Part shown: positions 7,405 through 56,891 of the stretch, one piece after another
Layout of the letters: the number at the start of each line of letters is the position of its first letter
Position numbering within the stretch: the stretch's first letter is position 1
Assembly: GCF_017348835.2 (NCBI RefSeq)
Contig: NZ_CP071375.1
Source of the DNA: Escherichia coli
Lineage (GTDB): Bacteria > Pseudomonadota > Gammaproteobacteria > Enterobacterales > Enterobacteriaceae
Strand: one strand, 5' to 3'
DNA length: 64,000 nucleotides
Program-made: the position numbers and the translations under genes
Notes under the pieces: model-generated
What the model was told of the DNA's origin: nothing
Seen by the model: the letters and a program-made list of their open reading frames with translations, nothing else
Database searches by the model: none

Positions 7405-8787
7405 ATGAAAGAAAACAATAGCCGCCGTGAGTTTTTGAGCCAGAGCGGTAAGATGGTCACCGCCGCCGCGCTGTTTGGTACCTCTGTGCCGCTCGCCCAT
7501 GCGGCGGTCTCTGGCACCACAAACTGCGAAGCGAACAACACCATGAAAATCACTGACCCGCATTACTATCTCGACAACGTGCTGCTGGAAACTGGATTTG
7601 ACTACGAAAATGGCGTGGCGGTGCAGACCCGCACGGCGCGCCAGACCGTGGAGATTCAGGACGGCAAAATTGTCACCCTGCGCGAGAACAAGCAGCATCC
7701 GGACGCCACGCTGCCGCACTATGACGCTGGCGGTAAGCTGATGCTGCCCACCACCCGCGACATGCATATTCATCTCGACAAAACCTTTTACGGCGGGCCG
7801 TGGCGCTCGCTCAATCGTCCGGCAGGCACCACCATCCAGGACATGATTAAGCTTGAGCAGAAAATGCTGCCGGAGTTGCAACCATACACTCAGGAACGGG
7901 CGGAGAAACTGATCGATTTTTTGCAGTCGAAAGGTACTACCATTGCCCGCAGCCACTGCAATATCGAACCAGTTTCCGGCCTGAAAAATCTGCAAAATTT
8001 GCAGGCGGTGCTGGCGCGACGTCAGGCGGGCTTTGAGTGTGAAATCGTCGCCTTCCCGCAGCACGGTTTGCTGCTGTCGAAATCGGAACCCTTAATGCGT
8101 GAAGCAATGCAGGCGGGTGCGCATTACGTCGGCGGGCTGGACCCGACCAGTGTCGATGGCGCGATGGAAAAATCCCTCGATACCATGTTCCAGATTGCGC
8201 TGGACTACGACAAAGGCGTCGATATTCACCTGCACGAAACCACTCCGTCGGGCGTGGCAGCCATCAATTATATGGTTGAAACGGTAGAGAAAACGCCGCA
8301 ACTGAAAGGTAAGCTGACCATCAGCCACGCCTTTGCGCTGGCTACGCTCAACGAACAACAGGTAGATGAACTGGCGAATCGGATGGCGGCGCAGCAAATT
8401 TCTATCGCCTCGACGGTGCCGATTGGCACGCTGCATATGCCGCTCAAACAGTTGCACGACAAAGGCGTAAAAGTGATGACTGGCACTGACAGCGTTATCG
8501 ACCACTGGTCGCCTTATGGTCTGGGCGACATGCTGGAAAAAGCCAATCTCTACGCGCAGCTCTATATTCGTCCTAACGAACAGAACCTCTCCCGTTCGCT
8601 GTTTCTAGCCACTGGCGATGTATTGCCGCTGAATGAAAAAGGCGAGCGTGTATGGCCAAAAGCGCAGGATGACGCCAGCTTTGTGCTGGTGGACGCCTCC
8701 TGTTCCGCCGAGGCGGTGGCGCGTATCTCGCCGAGAACCGCAACGTTCCATAAAGGGCAACTGGTGTGGGGGAGTGTGGCAGGTTGA
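7405..8787 (+). CDS. yahJ: amidohydrolase-superfamily deaminase/hydrolase (460 aa), Tat/Sec-type signal-like N-terminus
   Basis: RREFL...AAALFG N-terminus, metal-binding HIHLD motif; length 460 aa. Confidence 0.8.
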   Translation: MKENNSRREFLSQSGKMVTAAALFGTSVPLAHAAVSGTTNCEANNTMKITDPHYYLDNVLLETGFDYENGVAVQTRTARQTVEIQDGKIVTLRENKQHPDATLPHYDAGGKLMLPTTRDMHIHLDKTFYGGPWRSLNRPAGTTIQDMIKLEQKMLPELQPYTQERAEKLIDFLQSKGTTIARSHCNIEPVSGLKNLQNLQAVLARRQAGFECEIVAFPQHGLLLSKSEPLMREAMQAGAHYVGGLDPTSVDGAMEKSLDTMFQIALDYDKGVDIHLHETTPSGVAAINYMVETVEKTPQLKGKLTISHAFALATLNEQQVDELANRMAAQQISIASTVPIGTLHMPLKQLHDKGVKVMTGTDSVIDHWSPYGLGDMLEKANLYAQLYIRPNEQNLSRSLFLATGDVLPLNEKGERVWPKAQDDASFVLVDASCSAEAVARISPRTATFHKGQLVWGSVAG

Positions 8788-9085
8788 TGCGCATTTGAAA
8801 CGCCTGCAACGGTGAATAGTAAGAGATTTAAGCCCCAGGGAGTGGGGCGGGAATGGTTTGCTAATGAATGATCCTGAACTTTATAATCTCCCGGCATAAT
8901 TTCCAGGGGATTATTTGAGAGAAATACACAAAAGTGAGTTTTAACAAAGGTATTTATCAGGCCATAAATGTGACCTGCTTCGGATAAAAAAGATTCAGTA
9001 TCGAAAAACCAATGATACTCTTGCTGATGGTTACCAACAGTAATTAAGATGTGATTTGTTTTTCCGTAATCGCAAAAATATTGCC

Positions 9086-9496
9086 ATGACCATAAAAGAA
9101 AAATTCTCACAAAAATATCCCCATGCTTCCTTTTGTACTTTTGGCGATTCAGCCGCGTTGGCCGATCACCTCGCAACGTTGATTGCGACTGGTGTTAAAA
9201 CAGCTTCCTGTGGTTCGCTGGCGGGATGTATTGAAGACAACGCATTTCCGATGATTGGTGAGTATAAGATTGTAGAAAATAGCCGTGGTGAGCCTGTATG
9301 TGTTATCAGAGTGATTGGCCTGCATTTACTGCGCTTTTCTGATGTCACCGCAGAGCTTGCCCGTAAGGAAGGTGAAGGTGACCTCAGTCTTGAATATTGG
9401 CGTAATGAACACCGTCGTTTTTTCCAGGCAGAAGGAAGCTATTCACCAGAAATGGACGTTATCTTTGAAGAATATGCCCTTATTGACGTTGTATAG
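9086..9496 (+). CDS. ASCH-domain (PUA-like) protein, about 136 aa
   Basis: ORF 9056..9496; the MTIKEKF start at 9086 is more plausible; ATLIATGVKTASCG resembles the ASCH GxKT core. Confidence 0.55.
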   Translation: MTIKEKFSQKYPHASFCTFGDSAALADHLATLIATGVKTASCGSLAGCIEDNAFPMIGEYKIVENSRGEPVCVIRVIGLHLLRFSDVTAELARKEGEGDLSLEYWRNEHRRFFQAEGSYSPEMDVIFEEYALIDVV

Positions 9497-9569
9497 ATAA
9501 CTATTTATCTACACGAAATAAGCTCACAAACATAAAATATCGCTAATTTTGTTTATTTTGCTGTTTTTT

Positions 9570-9588
9570 ACGTGATGAATGTCACACT
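9570..9588. promoter_or_regulatory. CRP-like half-site pair GTGA-N6-TCACA upstream of the ABC transporter
   Basis: Sequence acGTGAtgaatgTCACAct read directly; about 160 bp upstream of the binding-protein start codon. Confidence 0.35.
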
Positions 9589-9746
9589 TATTATTGCTGC
9601 CCGTTTTGTCCATATTTATAACCATATTTTTAATAGCTGCCTGAAATAGAGCTGTTTATTCTGCATAAAAATATTCGAAAATTCTTATTCTCTCCAGCGC
9701 GCTAATTTGGGCGAACACTTCCTGACTACCCTGCAATGAGGCTGAA

Positions 9747-10733
9747 ATGATGAATAAACGTTTTGTTATCAATATGGTGTCTTCGCTGTTATTAGGCGCT
9801 GCGCTAATTTCTGCGCCGCTCCAGGCAGCGGAAAAAGTCGTGGTGAATATTTCTAAAGTCGATGGTATGCCGTGGTTTAATCGCATGGGCGAAGGTGTGG
9901 TTGAGGCGGGTAAAGCCTTTGGTGTTAATGCCTCACAGGTGGGGCCTTCAAGTACTGATGCTCCGCAACAGGTTAAAATTATTGAGGATTTAATCGCCCG
10001 TAAGGTTAATGCAATTACTATCGTGCCAAACGATGCCAACGTGCTGGAACCGGTATTCAAAAAAGCGCGAGATGCCGGAATTGTGGTTCTGACCAACGAA
10101 TCCCCCGGTCAGCCAAGTGCTAACTGGGATATCGAAATCATTGATAACGAAAAATTTGCCGCTGAATATGTTGAGCATATGGCGAAACGCATGGGTGGCA
10201 AGGGCGGCTATGTGATTTACGTGGGTAGTTTGACCGTGCCGCAGCATAACTTATGGGCTGACTTGCTGGTGAAATACCAGAAAGAGCATTACCCGGATAT
10301 GCATGAAGTTACCCGCCGCATGCCGGTTGCCGAGAGTGTGGATGACTCACGTCGTACCACACTGGACCTGATGAAAACCTATCCTGACTTGAAAGCGGTT
10401 GTCTCCTTTGGTTCAAACGGTCCGATTGGCGCGGGACGTGCGGTGAAAGAGAAACGGGCGAAAAATAAAGTCGCAGTCTATGGCATGATGATCCCTTCAC
10501 AGGCGGCATCACTGATTAAAAGTGGTGATATCACCGAAGGGATTACTTACGATCCGGCCTCTGCAGGTTACGCACTCGCAGCCGTCGCCAGCACATTGCT
10601 GAAGGGTGAAGAGATCAAGCCTGGATTAGAAATGCAGAATCTGGGTAAGGCCGACGTAGATATGGATAAGCGAATTATCCGTTTCCATAAGGTATTACTG
10701 GTCAACAAAGACAATATCGACTCACTTTATTAA
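9747..10733 (+). CDS. periplasmic sugar-binding protein, LsrB/RbsB family (328 aa) with signal peptide
   Basis: Signal peptide MMNKRFVINMVSSLLLGAALISAPLQAAEK; C-terminal NKDNID motif shared with LsrB-type binding proteins. Confidence 0.85.
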   Translation: MMNKRFVINMVSSLLLGAALISAPLQAAEKVVVNISKVDGMPWFNRMGEGVVEAGKAFGVNASQVGPSSTDAPQQVKIIEDLIARKVNAITIVPNDANVLEPVFKKARDAGIVVLTNESPGQPSANWDIEIIDNEKFAAEYVEHMAKRMGGKGGYVIYVGSLTVPQHNLWADLLVKYQKEHYPDMHEVTRRMPVAESVDDSRRTTLDLMKTYPDLKAVVSFGSNGPIGAGRAVKEKRAKNKVAVYGMMIPSQAASLIKSGDITEGITYDPASAGYALAAVASTLLKGEEIKPGLEMQNLGKADVDMDKRIIRFHKVLLVNKDNIDSLY

Positions 10734-10781
10734 TCCATTTCTTCGGGGCGAAAGCCCCGATTCTTATTGCCAGGGGATGTT

Positions 10782-12266
10782 ATGGAAACCTTCCTTTCCC
10801 TTCGTCATATCAACAAAACGTTTCATGCCACGCGAGCGCTGCGCGATGTTTCTCTCGACTTTATGTCGGGTGAAGTGCACTGCCTTGCCGGGCAAAACGG
10901 CTGTGGTAAATCGACGTTGATTAAAATTATGTCCGGTGTTTATCGCCCGGATGAGGGAGCGGAAATTACGCTTGGTGGGAAAAACTGGTCAAAGCTGACA
11001 CCCGCCGCTTCGGTGGCGCAGGGGATTCAGGTGATTTATCAGGACCTCTCTTTATTTCCTAACCTGAGTGTCTGGGAGAATATCGCCGTGAATCACTATC
11101 ACCACGGTCTGTTTGTTAACCGCCGTCGTCTGCGTGAGGTGGCGCAGGCGGCAATGACCAGTATTAACGTCACATTGCCACTGGATACACTCGTTTCTGA
11201 GCTTTCAATTGCCCGCTGTCAGCTGGTGGCTATTTGCCGTGCACTGGCGCAGGACGCACGGTTGATCGTGATGGATGAACCAACCGCTTCGCTGACCCAT
11301 CAGGAAGTGCAAGGGTTATTACAGGTGGTGCATCAATTGCGTGAACGCGGGATCTGCGTGGTCTTCGTCAGTCATCGTCTGGAAGAAGTGATGGAAGTTT
11401 CCGAGCGTATTTCAGTGCTGAAAGATGGTGAGCTGGTCGGGACTTTTCCGGCTGCAGAGATGACCACAAAACAACTCGGTTTCCTGATGACCGGCCAGGA
11501 GTTTGAATATCAGGTGCGAGAGTTGTGGCAGGGAAAATCCAGCACCCCGGTGCTGGAGGTGCGTAATTTAAGTCGTCATGGGGAATATCTAAATATTAAC
11601 TTGCGGGTGGAAGCGGGCGAAGTGGTATCGATTGTTGGCCTGCTTGGTGCGGGGCGCACGGAATTATGTCTGAGTCTGTTTGGTATGACCCGACCGGATG
11701 CTGGCGAGATCCTCATCAACGGCCAGCCGGTTACACTGCATAGTAACCAGGACGCCATCCGCCACGGTATTGGTTATGTTTCGGAAGATCGCATGTCGCG
11801 CGGTTTGGTGATGGCGCAATCTATTGAAGACAACATCATTAGCACTGTTTTTCACAAGGTAAAAGATCGCTTCGGCTTTCTGAGTGAAACTAAAGTGCGT
11901 GACCTGGTGGACAGGCTAATCAAGGCATTGACCATCAAAGTCTCTGATCCTCATCTCCCGGTGAATACGCTTTCTGGTGGTAACGCGCAGCGAGTATCGA
12001 TCGCCAAATGGCTGGCGATTGGGCCACGACTGTTGATTCTCGATAGCCCGACAGTCGGTGTTGATATCGCCAACAAAGCAGGAATATACGGCATTATCAG
12101 CGATCTGGCGGCTCATGGCATTGCGGTATTGATGATCTGCGATGAAATTGAAGAAGCGTGGTATCAAAGCCACCGGATTTTGGTAATGCAAAAAGGTCAG
12201 ATCACCCATAGCTTCCTGCCTGACAGCAGTTCTCAGGCCAGGATTGCGGAGGTGGTAAATGGCTGA
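10782..12266 (+). CDS. sugar ABC transporter ATP-binding protein, duplicated ABC domains (about 494 aa)
   Basis: Two Walker A motifs (GQNGCGKST and GLLGAGRTE) and an ABC signature (LSGGNAQR); RbsA/LsrA-like architecture. Confidence 0.85.
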   Translation: METFLSLRHINKTFHATRALRDVSLDFMSGEVHCLAGQNGCGKSTLIKIMSGVYRPDEGAEITLGGKNWSKLTPAASVAQGIQVIYQDLSLFPNLSVWENIAVNHYHHGLFVNRRRLREVAQAAMTSINVTLPLDTLVSELSIARCQLVAICRALAQDARLIVMDEPTASLTHQEVQGLLQVVHQLRERGICVVFVSHRLEEVMEVSERISVLKDGELVGTFPAAEMTTKQLGFLMTGQEFEYQVRELWQGKSSTPVLEVRNLSRHGEYLNINLRVEAGEVVSIVGLLGAGRTELCLSLFGMTRPDAGEILINGQPVTLHSNQDAIRHGIGYVSEDRMSRGLVMAQSIEDNIISTVFHKVKDRFGFLSETKVRDLVDRLIKALTIKVSDPHLPVNTLSGGNAQRVSIAKWLAIGPRLLILDSPTVGVDIANKAGIYGIISDLAAHGIAVLMICDEIEEAWYQSHRILVMQKGQITHSFLPDSSSQARIAEVVNG

Positions 12267-13230
12267 ACTGAAAAAACGCCATGAATTCTGGCTGGCATTA
12301 CTGATTGTGGTGCTGTTTGTTGGCCTTGCCTGGCGCAGCGACGAGTTTCTGACATTCGGTAATTTGTACGATCTCGCCAATAACTATGCCATGTTGACTA
12401 TTCTCGCCTGTGGTTTGTTTGTGGTGTTGATTTCCGGTGGAATTGATATTTCGTTTCCAGCTATGACCATCATTGCGCAATACGGCATGGTGCTGTTGCT
12501 GCAAAAAATTGGTGGCAACTTCGCTGTCGCGTTTGCACTGGCGGGCTGCATCGGCATTTTACTTGGCTTAATTAACGCCTTACTGGTTAATCGCCTACGG
12601 GTGCCTTCTATCATCATCACTATCTCGACGCTGAATATTTTCTATGGCCTGCTGTTATGGTTGAGTAAAGGTGTGTGGCTGTACGACTTTCCGCCGTGGT
12701 TTGAGCAGGGGGTTATGTTGTTCAAGTACACCGATGCTGATGGCTATGACTATGGCCTTGGTCTGCCGCTGATCGCCATGATTACGGTGGTGCTGCTAAC
12801 AGCGTTTATCATGAATTTCACCAGTGTAGGGCGCAAAATTTATGCCCTTGGCGGGAACCGCGAATCAGCCAGTCGCATCGGCTTTAGCGTGCTGAAACTG
12901 CAACTTTTCGTCTATGGCTATATGGGATTGATGTCTGGCGCTGCGGGTGTAGTGCAGTCGTGGACGGTGATGACTGTCGCCCCCGATTCTCTTCTGGGTT
13001 ATGAGCTGACAGTACTGGCTGCGGTGGTGCTTGGCGGCACTAGTTTGCTCGGCGGGCACGGCACGTTAACCGGTACTTTGCTCGGCGTGGTGTTGTTGGC
13101 AGTGATGCAAAACGGGCTAAATTTATTGGGAGTCTCGTCTTACTGGCAAACATTGATCACCGGCATCATCATCGTTGCCAGCATTAGTGCCACGGCGTGG
13201 AGTCAGCATCAGAACCGGAGTCTGCTATGA
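12259..13230 (+). CDS. ABC transporter permease, RbsC-like (323 aa)
   Basis: Multi-TM hydrophobic ORF overlapping the ATPase stop by 8 bp. Confidence 0.8.
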   Translation: MAELKKRHEFWLALLIVVLFVGLAWRSDEFLTFGNLYDLANNYAMLTILACGLFVVLISGGIDISFPAMTIIAQYGMVLLLQKIGGNFAVAFALAGCIGILLGLINALLVNRLRVPSIIITISTLNIFYGLLLWLSKGVWLYDFPPWFEQGVMLFKYTDADGYDYGLGLPLIAMITVVLLTAFIMNFTSVGRKIYALGGNRESASRIGFSVLKLQLFVYGYMGLMSGAAGVVQSWTVMTVAPDSLLGYELTVLAAVVLGGTSLLGGHGTLTGTLLGVVLLAVMQNGLNLLGVSSYWQTLITGIIIVASISATAWSQHQNRSLL

Positions 13231-14183
13231 AAAAATCGTGGTGTAATAACGTTGAGTTTTACTTGATCGGCCTGCTGGTGCTAACTGTTGCCGCGTTCAG
13301 CATTACTATGCCGGAGATTTTCTGGTCGATAAGTAATTTCCAGTCCGTCGCTTCGCAAATGCCCGTGCTGGGCATTCTGGCGTTGGCTATGGCGGTGACC
13401 ATGCTTTGCGGTGGCATTAACTTGTCAATTATAGCCACTGCTAACGCCTGTTCACTGGTGATGGCGTGGGTGGCGACTCAGTATCCACCGGGTATTGCTA
13501 CGGTTGTCGCTACGTTACTGGCGGGCGCTGGCGCGGCGGTGATAATCGGTTTATGTAACGGCGTATTGATTGCTGGTATTCGAGTGTCGCCAATTCTTGC
13601 AACGCTTGGGATGATGACGTTGCTCAAAGGGATAAATATTCTGGTGACAGGTGGTAGCGCCATTGCCAATTATCCCTCATGGGTGCTGTGGTTGAATCAT
13701 GCGCAATGGTTCGGTATTCCGCTACCGATGTGGTTGTTTGCCGCAGTGGCACTGGGGCTGTGGATATTGCTGGAAAAAACGCCGCTCGGTAAAGCCATTT
13801 ACCTGATTGGGTCTAACGAACGAGCAACACTTTACTCCGGCATTAACACTCGTCGGGTGCTGATTTGGGTTTATGTCATTTCCGCCTTGCTTTGTGCGGT
13901 AGCGGCATTTTTGATGATGTCGAAACTCAACTCGGCTAAGGCCTCTTATGGCGAATCGTACTTGCTGGTGTCAATCCTCGCGGCAGTACTCGGCGGGGTT
14001 AATCCGGACGGCGGCAGCGGGCGGATAATTGGTATGGTGCTGGCGCTGTTTCTTCTGCAAATTATTGAAAGCGGCTTCAATATTCTCGGTATAAGCCCCT
14101 ACCTGACGATGGCCTTATGGGGAACGTTGCTGCTCTGTTTCATTCAGGCTCGCGGCATGTTGGGGCTGGATCGGGTGGTTTAA
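13227..14183 (+). CDS. ABC transporter permease, second subunit (about 318 aa)
   Basis: Multi-TM ORF; the MKKSW start forms an ATGA overlap with the preceding permease stop. Confidence 0.8.
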   Translation: MKKSWCNNVEFYLIGLLVLTVAAFSITMPEIFWSISNFQSVASQMPVLGILALAMAVTMLCGGINLSIIATANACSLVMAWVATQYPPGIATVVATLLAGAGAAVIIGLCNGVLIAGIRVSPILATLGMMTLLKGINILVTGGSAIANYPSWVLWLNHAQWFGIPLPMWLFAAVALGLWILLEKTPLGKAIYLIGSNERATLYSGINTRRVLIWVYVISALLCAVAAFLMMSKLNSAKASYGESYLLVSILAAVLGGVNPDGGSGRIIGMVLALFLLQIIESGFNILGISPYLTMALWGTLLLCFIQARGMLGLDRVV

Positions 14184-14269
14184 ATATTGGCTATATTCAA
14201 TGGACGCGTTTTGCCGCGATGACATATCAGGCGTCGCCAAATACACATAGCTAATCAGGAGTAAACACA

Positions 14270-15319
14270 ATGAAGATCAAAGCTGTTGGTGCATATTCCG
14301 CTAAACAACCACTTGAACCGATGGATATCACCCGGCGTGAACCGGGACCGAATGATGTCAAAATCGAAATCGCTTACTGTGGCGTCTGCCATTCCGATCT
14401 CCACCAGGTCCGTTCCGAGTGGGCGGGGACGGTTTACCCCTGCGTGCCGGGTCATGAAATTGTGGGGCGTGTGGTAGCCGTTGGTGATCAGGTAGAAAAA
14501 CATGCGCCGGGCGATCTGGTCGGTGTCGGCTGCATTGTCGACAGTTGTAAACATTGCGAAGAGTGTGAAGACGGGCTGGAAAACTACTGTGATCACATGA
14601 CCGGCACATATAACTCGCCGACGCCGGACGAACCGGGCCATACTCTGGGCGGCTACTCACAACAGATCGTCGTTCATGAGCGATATGTTCTGCGTATTCG
14701 TCACCCGCAAGAGCAGCTGGCGGCGGTGGCTCCTTTGTTGTGTGCAGGGATCACCACGTACTCGCCGCTACGTCACTGGCAGGCCGGGCCGGGTAAAAAA
14801 GTGGGCGTGGTCGGCATCGGCGGTCTGGGACATATGGGGATTAAGCTGGCCCACGCGATGGGGGCACATGTGGTGGCATTTACCACTTCTGAGGCAAAAC
14901 GCGAAGCGGCAAAAGCCCTGGGGGCCGATGAAGTTGTTAACTCACGCAATGCCGATGAGATGGCGGCTCATGTGAAGAGTTTCGATTTCATTTTGAATAC
15001 AGTAGCTGCGCCACATAATCTCGACGATTTTACCACCTTGCTGAAGCGTGATGGCACCATGACGCTGGTTGGTGTGCCTGCGACACCGCATAAATCGCCG
15101 GAAGTTTTCAACCTGATCATGAAACGCCGTGCGATAGCCGGTTCTATGATTGGCGGCATTCCAGAAACTCAGGAGATGCTCGATTTTTGCGCCGAACATG
15201 GCATCGTGGCTGATATAGAGATGATTCGGGCCGATCAAATTAATGAAGCCTATGAGCGAATGCTGCGCGGTGATGTGAAATATCGTTTTGTTATCGATAA
15301 TCGCACACTAACAGACTGA
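14270..15319 (+). CDS. yahK: Zn-dependent NADPH aldehyde reductase / alcohol dehydrogenase (349 aa)
   Basis: GHE motif (CVPGHEIVGRV), structural Zn Cys cluster (CKHCEECEDG), GxGxxG (GIGGLGHMG); 349 aa. Confidence 0.9.
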   Translation: MKIKAVGAYSAKQPLEPMDITRREPGPNDVKIEIAYCGVCHSDLHQVRSEWAGTVYPCVPGHEIVGRVVAVGDQVEKHAPGDLVGVGCIVDSCKHCEECEDGLENYCDHMTGTYNSPTPDEPGHTLGGYSQQIVVHERYVLRIRHPQEQLAAVAPLLCAGITTYSPLRHWQAGPGKKVGVVGIGGLGHMGIKLAHAMGAHVVAFTTSEAKREAAKALGADEVVNSRNADEMAAHVKSFDFILNTVAAPHNLDDFTTLLKRDGTMTLVGVPATPHKSPEVFNLIMKRRAIAGSMIGGIPETQEMLDFCAEHGIVADIEMIRADQINEAYERMLRGDVKYRFVIDNRTLTD

Positions 15320-17051: not shown

Positions 17052-17722
17052 TCACCGCTGCGTCACCCCTTCGTAAATCAGGCGTAGCGCGAATACACCA
17101 ATAATTGCACCAATAACCCGACTGGCAACGCGTTGCATACGCCCATAAGCACGACGCACAGCGGGCAAAGAAAACGCCTGACTAAGAAAGACTCGCCAGA
17201 TAACTGATGCGAGCACAATCCCCGCCCAGGCCATTAAACGTGCCCATGTTGGTGTTTCGGCATTTAATGTTACTGAGAAAATACTGATAAAAAATAAAAC
17301 GGTTTGCGGGTTAGAGAGATCGGTAATTAATCCGCGGCGAAAAAAGACATACCAGGGGCGCTAATCGGTTGTTGTAGTGTGCTCATTTGCGGTGTTGACT
17401 GGCGGCGCATGCTACACCACGCAAACCATAAGAGATAAGCGCCGCCGACGATTCTGATAAGCGAAAAAATCTCCTCACACTGCGTAATTAGCGTTGCAAG
17501 ACCAAACAAACCCAACCCGGAATAAAATGCATCGCCCAGCGCCACGCCCAGTCCGGTCAGCACTCCTGCGCGTCGACCGGAAGCCAGGCTGGTTTGTACT
17601 ACCACAAAAAGATTGGCTCCCGGATTAAAAAAAGTAATCACGAACAGTCCTACGGTCAGGTAAACGGCGTGCAAAGGATCCATAGTGATTTCATCCATAA
17701 ATAAGTGAAGTAACTTCATCAT
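17052..17722 (-). pseudogene. yahN: LysE/RhtB-family amino-acid exporter, apparently disrupted by a -1 frameshift in a poly-T tract
   Basis: Two minus-strand ORFs (17327..17722 and 17052..17234) in different frames; combined span 671 nt versus 672 nt expected for 223 aa plus stop; frame break at a T-homopolymer near 17339-17345. Confidence 0.55.
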
Positions 17723-17868
17723 ATTTCTACCAAAAATAATCGGGTGCGAGAGAGATCACAAAGTGTCTTATTTCCGGTTACTGGCGTTTATGCCCTGACT
17801 GAACTAATTATTAATCAACCCAATAATGTGGGTGGGTGATAGTGTGATAACAACTCTGGAGCCGTAAT

Positions 17869-37481: not shown

Positions 37482-37505
37482 TAATGAGTGAGCTGACTCA
37501 CATTA
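37482..37505 (-). promoter_or_regulatory. CAP/CRP site of the lac promoter
   Basis: TAATGTGAGTCAGCTCACTCATTA; one central substitution relative to the K-12 site as I recall it; both TGTGA/TCACT arms intact. Confidence 0.9.
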
Positions 37506-39609: not shown

Positions 39610-40398
39610 TTAGAATGTCAACGTTTCACCATCTTCTGGTACGTTCACAAATTCGATAATTTGATTATCTCTGGCGTATTCCTTGAGCGCATCACGCGTC
39701 AGCAAACAGTGGTTTACGGCCTCCATATGTGTCGCGACAATTTGCGCTTCTGGCAGGGTAAAATGTGTTTTGAGAATATCTTCTGCTCCCATAATTATCG
39801 CGCCATGCCCCAGAACATGCGCAAATCCGGCATTCAACACAACCACTTCTGGTTGGAAAGTTAGCATTGTAGCCTCGACGTCGTCACGCCAGAGGGTATC
39901 GCCACCCAGATAGAGCGTTTTCTCTGTCGGGTGCTGGAAAACAACGCCGCAGGCTGCGCCTAAACGCTTCGCCATAGCCGGGTCGGCATAGGTGCGATCG
40001 GAGCCGTGCTGCCCTGTCGTTTTATGCAGAGTAATATCGCCAAATTTAGTCTCGTCGGTAAGTACGGTAAGATGCGTAAATCCTTGTTTATTCAGTGATT
40101 CAGCATCTTGCTCATTTTGCACATAAATCAGTTTATCTTTAGGGACGACGCGGGAGGCTGTTTCGTCCCAGTGATCTTCATGCAAATGGGTCACGATTAG
40201 GGCGTCAACGTTGAGTAACGTTGTTAAATCGCACGGTAATTCTACCGTTGGATTGCGGATTTCTGCGCGTGCCGTTCCGGCAAAACCCGGATAACTTCCT
40301 TTAGGCGCGAGTAACGGGTCGATAAGAAATGTTTTGCCAGCGTATTGGATAATTTGGGTGGCATTACGAATTTGCGTAATTTTCATGATTTGCTCCAC
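39610..40398 (-). CDS. metallo-beta-lactamase-fold hydrolase (262 aa)
   Basis: HxHxDH motif (THLHEDHWDE) plus downstream His/Asp ligands; 19 bp upstream of the regulator on the same strand. Confidence 0.8.
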   Translation of the reverse strand: MEQIMKITQIRNATQIIQYAGKTFLIDPLLAPKGSYPGFAGTARAEIRNPTVELPCDLTTLLNVDALIVTHLHEDHWDETASRVVPKDKLIYVQNEQDAESLNKQGFTHLTVLTDETKFGDITLHKTTGQHGSDRTYADPAMAKRLGAACGVVFQHPTEKTLYLGGDTLWRDDVEATMLTFQPEVVVLNAGFAHVLGHGAIIMGAEDILKTHFTLPEAQIVATHMEAVNHCLLTRDALKEYARDNQIIEFVNVPEDGETLTF

Positions 40399-40500
40399 AT
40401 CACAGTATTGATGTCATTAGCGTAGCGTGCAGCCCGTACTGTGCATGTGGGCAAATGGGCGAATAACGATGAGAATGGGCCAAATTACACATTGGCGTAA

Positions 40501-55859: not shown

Positions 55860-56891
55860 TTATTTACCCATCTTCACTTCGCTGACCCATTTATTAATCA
55901 ATGCCTTACGAACATCCGTGGAACCATATTTATCCATGTCGTAGTTGATTAATTTCAGGTCGTCGAGCTTCAGCGAATTTGGCGACGTTTCGGCGGTGGT
56001 ATTGGTCAGGATCTGATAAGACTTCCCTTTCTTCCACGCCAGTTCCTGAGCTTCTTTTGATAATACCCAGTCCACAAACAGTTTGGCGTTGTCGAGGTTG
56101 CGCGCGCCTTTCAGAATGCTGACGCCGCCAATTTCGTAGCCCGTACCTTCACACGGGGAAATCAACTCCAGCGGCGCGCCCTGTTCTTTTTCCAGCGAGT
56201 AGTCATGCAGGAAGCCAATACCAATCGCCGTTTCGCCACGGGCGGCGTTACGTGCCGGGGCTATGCCTGATTTGGTGTACTGAGAGACGTTGGCGTTCAG
56301 TTGTTTTAGATAATCAAAGGCCTGATCTTCCCCCCACAGCTGCGCAAAAGTAGCCAGGGCGGTGTAGGCAGTACCGGAACTTTGCGGATCGGCAATTTGA
56401 ATTTCGCCTTTATATTCCGGTTTGGTGAGATCTTTCCAGCACTTCGGCACCGGCAGGTTTTTCTCTTTCAGACGATCGGTGTTTACGCCAAAACCGAGGA
56501 TCCCCACATAAACGGCAGAGGACAGATTCCCTTTCACTTTTGCCGGATCGCGGAATTTCTCCATGATCTGCTCAAGGTTAGGGGATTTATACGCCTGTAG
56601 CAGGCCCATCTCGCCAGCCTGCGATTGCGGGTCTAAAGTGCCGCCGTACCAGACGTCAGCCTGGGGGTTTTTCTTTTCAGCATCGACTTTTGCCAGGGTG
56701 CTTCCGGAACCGTTGCGGATAAACGAGGTTTTTACATCATATTTCTCGCCAAACGCTTTGGTTTCGGCCTCACACATTTCATTGGTGGCGCTGCAATAGA
56801 CCACCAGCCGGCCTTTTGCCTGCGCGGCACCCGTTAAAGTCGCCAGCGCAACGGCAGAAGCAATCAGAGTAGAGGTAAAGGTCATTTTCAT
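55860..56891 (-). CDS. afuA: periplasmic substrate-binding protein (AfuA-like, about 343 aa) with signal peptide
   Basis: ORF 55860..57218 runs antisense through the upstream gene; real start MKMTFTSTLIASAVALATLTGAAQA at 56891, overlapping the upstream gene stop by 4 bp. Confidence 0.8.
   Translation of the reverse strand: MKMTFTSTLIASAVALATLTGAAQAKGRLVVYCSATNEMCEAETKAFGEKYDVKTSFIRNGSGSTLAKVDAEKKNPQADVWYGGTLDPQSQAGEMGLLQAYKSPNLEQIMEKFRDPAKVKGNLSSAVYVGILGFGVNTDRLKEKNLPVPKCWKDLTKPEYKGEIQIADPQSSGTAYTALATFAQLWGEDQAFDYLKQLNANVSQYTKSGIAPARNAARGETAIGIGFLHDYSLEKEQGAPLELISPCEGTGYEIGGVSILKGARNLDNAKLFVDWVLSKEAQELAWKKGKSYQILTNTTAETSPNSLKLDDLKLINYDMDKYGSTDVRKALINKWVSEVKMGK

Follow-up and report, generated by a model that had tools for sequence, protein, structure and literature searches.

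The palindrome acGTGAtgaatgTCACAct, confirmed at positions 9570-9588 of a 64,000-nt stretch of Escherichia coli DNA (hereafter the window), is very probably a real CRP binding site. It probably represents a high-affinity cAMP-CRP site that forms the upstream element of an araBAD/araE-type CRP-AraC(I1-I2) promoter of the aauABCD operon. The first-pass annotation, which had described a CRP-like site before an accessory ABC transporter, saw only the CRP half of this composite promoter, and missed both the identity of the transporter and its dependence on AraC and L-arabinose. The elements read in the promoter region are the following:

9571-9586, no strand assigned: predicted CRP site, 16-bp core CGTGATGAATGTCACA, recognised by matrix score and half-site conservation.
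9598-9614, plus strand: AraC half-site I1, TGCCCGTTTTGTCCATA, with an intact B-box (TCCATA, 9609-9614) and a degenerate A-box (TGCC for TAGC).
9619-9635, plus strand: AraC half-site I2, TAACCATATTTTTAATA, in direct repeat with I1, from which 4 bp (TTTA) separate it.
9657-9662, plus strand: predicted -10 hexamer TATTCT, with the position of the TAnnnT motif conserved in orthologues.

These elements precede four genes on the same strand:

9750-10733, plus strand: aauA, periplasmic binding protein (EHEC Z0415, Sakai ECs0374), 711 bits against PDB 9I1M.
10782-12266, plus strand: aauB, ABC ATPase with two nucleotide-binding domains, from the annotation and NCBIfam sugar ABC ATPase models.
12259-13230, plus strand: aauC, permease, from the annotation and NCBIfam.
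13227-14183, plus strand: aauD, permease, from the annotation and NCBIfam.

The binding protein of the window matches PDB 9I1M over its full length, and this structure is that of AauA, from the Accessory L-arabinose Uptake system of EHEC (Z0415-Z0419, O-island 17) (PMC12307932). Judging by this match, the genes downstream of the CRP site are the already published Aau transporter, AauABCD, and the EHEC promoter is identical to that of the window. The NCBIfam sugar ABC ATPase models matched by AauB are all under their equivalog cut-offs. The RefSeq label of the binding protein, "autoinducer 2 ABC transporter substrate-binding protein", was rejected, as the LsrB model reaches 111 bits against a cut-off of 384. 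Guesses at a RhaS- or RbsB-type substrate were discarded too, their NCBIfam matches being all far under the cut-offs and the solved structure being AauA. It has been reported that AauA prefers D-ribulose, which it binds much more tightly (PMC12307932), and that L-arabinose is the sole inducer of a Paau reporter carrying the upstream region, which is dead in an araC deletion strain and is restored by araC in trans (Cottam et al., PMC11127945). The standard length of promoter fragments in the later Aau paper was about 300 bp (PMC12307932), and a published Paau fragment of that length would include the CRP site. The main texts of both papers (PMC11127945 and PMC12307932) make no mention of CRP, cAMP, a binding site in the promoter or other cis elements. 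Likewise, no description of aau cis elements was found in the publications searched, which dealt with yahJ/yahK, Z0415, the ECs037x tags and AraC regulon ChIP.

The first-pass annotation had read the site as a match to TGTGA-N6-TCACA except for the first T, and the core indeed departs from this consensus at its first base only. Its centre lies at 9578.5, with an expected 22-bp footprint at 9568-9589. The AT-rich setting that had been described was also found, the 253-bp intergenic region having 33.6% G+C vs 53.1% for the whole window; this region is flanked by an ASCH-domain gene (9086-9496) on the upstream side and by aauA on the downstream side. The distance of about 160 bp to the binding-protein gene holds when measured from the edge of the site, the centre being 171.5 bp before the annotated ATG at 9750 and 168.5 bp before an alternative in-frame ATG at 9747.

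The matrix scan proposed in the first-pass annotation was carried out with a symmetrised log-odds CRP matrix derived from 107 ChIP-seq-bound 16-mers of ETEC H10407 (PMC4287617, Table 1). The score of the aau site is not low: with 16.13 bits it is the highest among all 64,000 positions of the window, and it exceeds 84% of the 107 training sites. The exact tail probability for such a score is 1.2e-6 per position, corresponding to 0.08 matches this good expected by chance per 64 kb and 3e-4 in the 253-bp intergenic region. When the most similar training site (gntP/uxuA) was left out, the aau site still scored 16.05 bits. The half-site CGTGA occurs in 23 of the 107 bound sites, and thus the mismatch at the first base is a common, tolerated variant. 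A plain count of GTGA-N6-TCACA gave two copies in the window, one in the aau site and the other in the lac site (37488-37502), as compared with a mean of 0.32 in shuffled sequences. The scores of the aau site and of the reference sites on the same matrix were:

9571-9586: aau CRP site (window, O157:H7), 16.13 bits.
17745-17760: yahN/yahO CRP site, ChIP-validated, 14.74 bits.
37487-37502: lac CRP site, 13.99 bits.
K-12: araFGH CRP site, 10.0 bits.
K-12: araE CRP site, 9.4 bits.
K-12: araBAD CRP site, 8.9 bits.

The scan also brought up other sites in the window. The third best match, TTTGCTCCACATCACA (40389-40404, 14.2 bits), is CRP-like. It ends 3 nt before the start codon of an accessory gene, located between mhpR and lacI, for an MBL-fold hydrolase, a placement that is odd for an activator site. 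The lac CRP site reads TGTGAGTCAGCTCACT on the lac strand; the K-12 site, which we take to be TGTGAGTTAGCTCACT, would differ from it by a single substitution in the spacer.

A scan of one genome per species yielded 80 loci encoding AauA relatives, 60 of which, from Enterobacterales, Pasteurellaceae, Aeromonas and Vibrio, were taken as orthologues, with identities from about 65% upwards. The remaining 20 are paralogues, a group with 58-61% identity and a downstream kinase about 26% identical to AraB, which matches the Rbl system of a 2025 paper (PMC12307932). The 420 bp upstream of the binding-protein gene contain the best CRP match of the whole locus (about 13 kb) in 36 of the 60 orthologues, where 2.1 would be expected by chance. 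Eight sequences from five genera (E. coli, Klebsiella, Enterobacter pulveris, Franconibacter and Mangrovibacter) were aligned: the CRP half-sites GTGA and TCAC never vary among them, nor does the TCCATA located 22 nt past the CRP core, while the 6-bp CRP spacer and the flanks do. The same pattern was observed across 25 genus representatives, with G2, T3, G4, A5, T12, C13, C15 and A16 conserved in 90-100% and the spacer not conserved; position 14 alternates between A and T (TCACA or TCTCA), and TCTCA is also present among the ChIP-bound sites.

These data bear on whether the palindrome could be a chance occurrence, or the operator of another regulator, of the FNR or LacI family, which we regard as scarcely credible. 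It is true that the site is one base off the CRP consensus and that the island has no local regulator gene. However, chance would produce only 0.08 matches this good per 64 kb, conservation falls precisely on the bases that CRP contacts, and the core GTGA/TCAC is neither the FNR motif (TTGAT/ATCAA) nor the TGCGA of CRP-S sites. The latter, which are Sxy-dependent, are defined by a TGCGA core with C at half-site position 6 (PMC1635313); the aau half-sites are CGTGA and TGTGA, and a CRP-S identity was therefore rejected. As for the missing local regulator, it is accounted for because AraC regulates aau.

The second element of the promoter lies at a fixed distance from the CRP core. The sequence TCCAT[AG] was found exactly 22 nt after the core in 37 of the 60 orthologue loci (Enterobacterales and Aeromonas) and exactly 23 nt after it in another 14, all from Pasteurellaceae. 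By comparison, only one of the 20 Rbl-type paralogue loci contains it, at a different offset. The nature of the conserved block was assessed with an I1 matrix built from 23 non-E. coli genera only and scanned over the K-12 araBAD, araE, araFGH and araJ promoter regions. The top matches were araI1 with 24.8 bits (P 2e-9), araE I1 with 19.9 bits and an araFGH site with 22.7 bits. Since a matrix made from other genera recovers the K-12 araI1, araE and araFGH sites, the conserved block is an AraC motif, and its presence in the aau promoter explains at the sequence level the published dependence on AraC. The I1 of E. coli aau reaches 15.0 bits on this matrix (P 7e-6), weakened by its degenerate A-box.

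In the aau promoter the two 17-bp half-sites are direct repeats, 21 bp from start to start, in a 17+4+17 layout, and I2 would lie next to the -35 region or overlap with it. The half-sites of the orthologues are closer to the textbook AraC sequences than those of E. coli aau. In Pasteurellaceae, I1 is TAGCAGAATTTTCCATA, followed by a spacer such as TTCA and by an I2 of TAACAAAAATTTACCTA; the Klebsiella I2 is TAGCTGAATATTACCTG, to be compared with TAGCGGATCCTACCTGA for K-12 araI2. In general, the I2 of the orthologues reads TAGC/TAAC-N7-TACCTG/TACCTA, as araI2 does. A second AraC-like half-site (TCCATA or O2-type) was sought in 9497-9752 and none was found, the next best match having 3.0 bits; thus, as there is no O2-like half-site in the 253-bp region, a repression loop is not evident at aau. 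Elsewhere in the window there are two further AraC-like matches. One is the half-site TAGTGATTTCATCCATA (17683-17699, 15.3 bits), within the 5' end of yahN and about 46 nt from the yahN/yahO CRP site, which is a ChIP-seq peak in ETEC; the other is AACCATATTTATCCATG (55922-55938, 16.5 bits).

The whole arrangement, in the direction of the gene, consists of the CRP core, 22 nt to TCCATA of I1, the 4-bp spacer, I2 followed by a poor -35, about 21 nt, the -10 hexamer, an inferred start near 9670 and an 80-nt leader before aauA. A TAnnnT motif begins 19-23 nt past the end of I2 in 44 of the 51 orthologue loci that have AraC half-sites, as TACTGT in Leclercia and Silvania (identical to araBAD), TACAGT in Budviciaceae, TAAGAT in Pasteurellaceae and TATTCT in E. 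coli and Klebsiella. From this position, transcription would start at about 9669-9671, placing the CRP centre at about -90.5 to -92.5, possibly a few bp off. Activating CRP sites are centred at positions such as -41.5, -61.5, -72.5 and -92.5. A position of about -92.5 is among the two commonest for CRP in the ETEC study (PMC4287617). A scan of 8700-10200 against Rfam (E up to 1) returned only a meaningless snoRNA match, so that the leader carries no known RNA element.

An alternative is that CRP acts not from about -91 but on another, overlapping promoter, either the match at 9567-9594 or a class II start near 9620, as a repressor or a proximal activator; we consider this very unlikely. In its favor, the single generic sigma-70 match of the promoter scan, TTTACG-16-TATTAT (9567-9594), overlaps the CRP site. 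However, this match has only 9 of 12 consensus bases, its count of one is below the mean of 1.7 in shuffled sequences, and its TATTAT is not kept in Klebsiella, Franconibacter and Mangrovibacter; because of this lack of conservation it was rejected as a promoter. The class II reading, with CRP at -41.5, was rejected as well: no acceptable -10 fits 9608-9613, and a start near 9620 would leave both AraC half-sites past the start, a misfit with AraC as the essential activator.

Our preferred reading, activation by CRP from upstream of AraC, finds its closest counterpart in the K-12 araBAD promoter. In both, the CRP site is followed by I1 and I2, which are repeated directly towards the gene with 4 bp in between; I2 borders on a poor -35, a weak TAnnnT -10 lies about 20 nt on (TACTGT, at 20 nt, in araBAD), and both promoters depend on AraC and L-arabinose. 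In araBAD and araE, I1 is a 17-bp half-site of the form nAGC-N7-TCCATA, and the half-site after the spacer also has 17 bp. A count on the araBAD sequence, from the start site of that promoter, places its CRP centre at -93.5. The two promoters differ in the gap from the CRP core to TCCATA (22 nt in aau vs 24 nt in araBAD) and in the balance of their sites: the aau CRP site is far nearer the consensus (16.1 vs 8.9 bits), whereas the I1 of E. coli aau is weaker, with its degenerate A-box (15.0 vs 24.8 bits). The O2-type distal half-site, of which none was found at aau, is a feature of araBAD and not of the whole family, as no such spacing requirement was seen for araE. The K-12 araE promoter, also related to arabinose uptake, has the same CRP-I1-I2 order and the same I1-I2 junction (TCCATATTTAT...), but a gap of 24 nt instead of 22 and a CRP site of 9.4 bits. 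The K-12 araFGH operon encodes, like aau, an ABC-type arabinose transporter under AraC and CRP, and its AraC half-site scores 22.7 bits. However, this half-site is reversed and precedes the best CRP match (at 210 and 313 in the retrieved sequence), and therefore the order there is AraC-CRP-polymerase and not CRP-AraC-polymerase. The lac CRP site, which served as positive control for the matrix, is similar to that of aau as a class I type activator site before a sugar-utilisation operon. In lac, CRP acts alone at -61.5 of a repressor-controlled promoter, whereas aau pairs CRP with an adjacent activator.

By analogy with these systems, arabinose-bound AraC on I1-I2 would recruit RNA polymerase, and CRP, one step further upstream at about -91, would add activation when glucose is absent. 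With such joint activation, Aau would be made only in cells that have both arabinose and a high cAMP level. The quality of the site, its conservation, the AraC motif and the fixed spacing can be read directly from the compared sequences. From them we infer that CRP occupies the site, as well as the direction and size of its effect.

Published expression data are in line with this mechanism. The gene ECs0374 of strain Sakai is aauA, and the intergenic region before it is identical to that of the window in 252 of 253 bases, including all of 9561-9680. In Sakai cells grown in MOPS with 0.1% glucose and no arabinose, Bergholz et al. (PMC2241611) found ECs0374 upregulated by a log2 value of 2.42 (5.3-fold) between 4.6 and 5 h, at the transition to stationary phase and glucose exhaustion. 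Its expression cluster includes araC (+2.57), aldA and dadA; mhpR (+4.33) rose in the same interval in a different cluster, and ptsG fell (-3.09) (PMC2241611). The authors attributed the general rise of sugar transport genes to release from catabolite repression (PMC2241611). The rise of aauA in Sakai fits activation by CRP and is not proof of it, because RpoS and other stationary-phase factors change simultaneously. Taken with the top matrix score and the half-sites conserved in about 25 genera, the 5.3-fold rise lends indirect support to the catabolite control of a sugar importer that the first-pass annotation had suggested.

Binding by CRP might also have no consequence. For many of the CRP sites bound in ChIP experiments, no influence on regulation could be measured (PMC12360894), and an inert site at aau, where CRP would contribute little or nothing and AraC alone would regulate the operon, seems unlikely but has some arguments on its side. 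The araC deletion abolishes reporter activity completely, the reporter is still inducible by arabinose in glucose-containing medium, and bound sites apparently lacking a transcriptional effect are known from ChIP studies. Against it, an inert site would not be expected to keep its half-sites and a 22-23-nt spacing to AraC across two bacterial orders, aauA goes up at glucose exhaustion when no arabinose is supplied, and the same layout at araBAD gives co-activation by CRP, which is established and cited as such in PMC11127945. The two CRP ChIP-seq studies of pathogenic E. coli that were examined used ETEC H10407 and EAEC 042, and since the aau locus is absent from both strains, these experiments are uninformative on the aau site. 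It should also be taken into account that H-NS keeps CRP off good sites in AT-rich acquired DNA, as at ETEC plasmid sites (PMC4287617), and masking by H-NS could in principle affect the aau CRP site, in a region with 33.6% G+C.

Returning to the composite CRP-AraC promoter, its genomic surroundings point to a long association with AraC. Searches with K-12 AraC, AraB, AraA and AraD (tblastn) showed that araC, often together with araB or araA, adjoins the transporter in Pasteurellaceae, Budviciaceae and Providencia:

Pasteurellaceae: araC (38-44% identity) immediately upstream of the transporter.
Chelonobacter and Testudinibacter: araB (60-61%) downstream of the transporter.
Actinobacillus seminis: araA (60%) downstream of the transporter.
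Limnobaculum, Budvicia and Leminorella: araC (57-59%) upstream, with a divergent araB.
Providencia: araC (57.6%), with araC and araB just downstream.

The cassettes of E. coli and Klebsiella have no ara genes alongside and keep the promoter module. Since araC adjoins the transporter in these groups and many genera have the module together with the cassette, the link to AraC looks ancestral to the aau cassette, and not newly acquired.

Some relatives have a different upstream region. In the 400 bp before the binding-protein gene, loci of Providencia (L018, L020) and Vibrio (L050, L052) show neither a good CRP match nor TCCATA; their promoter may be located further upstream, or the operon may be organised differently. 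The Providencia copies that lack the promoter module still adjoin araC and araB. The Rbl-type operons of Serratia, Pantoea and Rahnella (L064-L085) have no AraC boxes and show CRP matches of 14-16 bits (e.g. GGTGATCTTGCTCACA) about 300-340 bp upstream of the binding-protein gene, each of them the maximum of its locus. No regulator of the Rbl system was known to the authors of the 2025 paper (PMC12307932).

The window is chromosomal, and over the stretch used as query it has 100% identity to E. coli strain PE164. The aau block sits between yahJ and yahK; of 5,426 complete E. coli genomes, about 2,210 carry it. Within the species the promoter is polymorphic upstream of the CRP site and almost invariant from I1 to the ATG. 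The following alleles of the CRP core were found:

O157:H7 and window: CGTGATGAATGTCACA, 16.13 bits.
PA45B and strain 47258: CGTGATGATTGTCACA, 15.1 bits.
SCPM-O-B-8794: CGTGATAAGAATCACA, 16.25 bits.
E. coli-like MAG contig: CGTGATGAATGTCACG, 14.1 bits.
O104:H4 C227-11: CGTAATGAATGTCACA, 11.75 bits, left half-site CGTAA.

The last allele, from the lineage of the German outbreak (L094), has a G-to-A change in a CRP contact base, equivalent to window position 9574. The aau CRP site is therefore not inviolable, as it is altered in O104:H4.

The strains lacking aau give some indication of the history of the locus. ETEC H10407 is K-12-like, with yahJ directly before yahK and only deletion scars in between. 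The remnants were compared between H10407 (L002 13151-13650) and window segments 8728-8848, 9447-9512 and 14112-14333: in H10407, about 50 bp from the end of the ASCH gene survive together with 16 bp of the intergenic region (94% identity), as does the 3' end of aauD (99.6% identity). Because these ends of the ASCH gene and aauD are retained, the aau-less state looks like a deletion of about 9513-14111 and not like the absence of an insertion, a view that is not easily reconciled with aau having been described as an O-island gained by horizontal transfer. In EAEC 042 the slot between yahJ and yahK holds an unrelated gene for a 216-aa hypothetical protein (L004 5671-6318; NC_017626.1 404670-405317). 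The yahJ-yahK junction is thus a variable spot, with at least three states. The ASCH-domain gene travels with aau in E. coli and is absent upstream of the Klebsiella and Pasteurellaceae orthologues examined; a terminator scan of the DNA between this gene and the aau promoter found no terminator-like structure.

A broader interpretation, which we offer only tentatively, is that CRP and AraC sites form a portable module that has been kept with its genes across Enterobacterales and Pasteurellaceae. In E. coli, the unusually strong CRP site (16 bits vs 9-10 bits in araBAD, araE and araFGH) together with the weakened I1 would make cAMP-CRP the dominant gate, AraC control would have been inherited and not "hijacked" by EHEC, and the K-12-type strains would have lost the locus by deletion. 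If this were true, part of aau expression would be a "hunger" response independent of arabinose, such as that of Sakai cells running out of glucose.

The analysis provides a base-level map of the promoter, with coordinates for the CRP site, the AraC half-sites I1 and I2 and the predicted -10. Beyond Aau the result is an ordinary one, as a CRP site before a sugar transporter is what specialists would expect, and as an addition to a known system it is useful but ordinary. Aau is a recently described gut fitness factor of EHEC, importing D-ribulose and L-arabinose. The map predicts that this transporter would be under catabolite repression in addition to arabinose control, which bears on the timing of its expression in the intestine.
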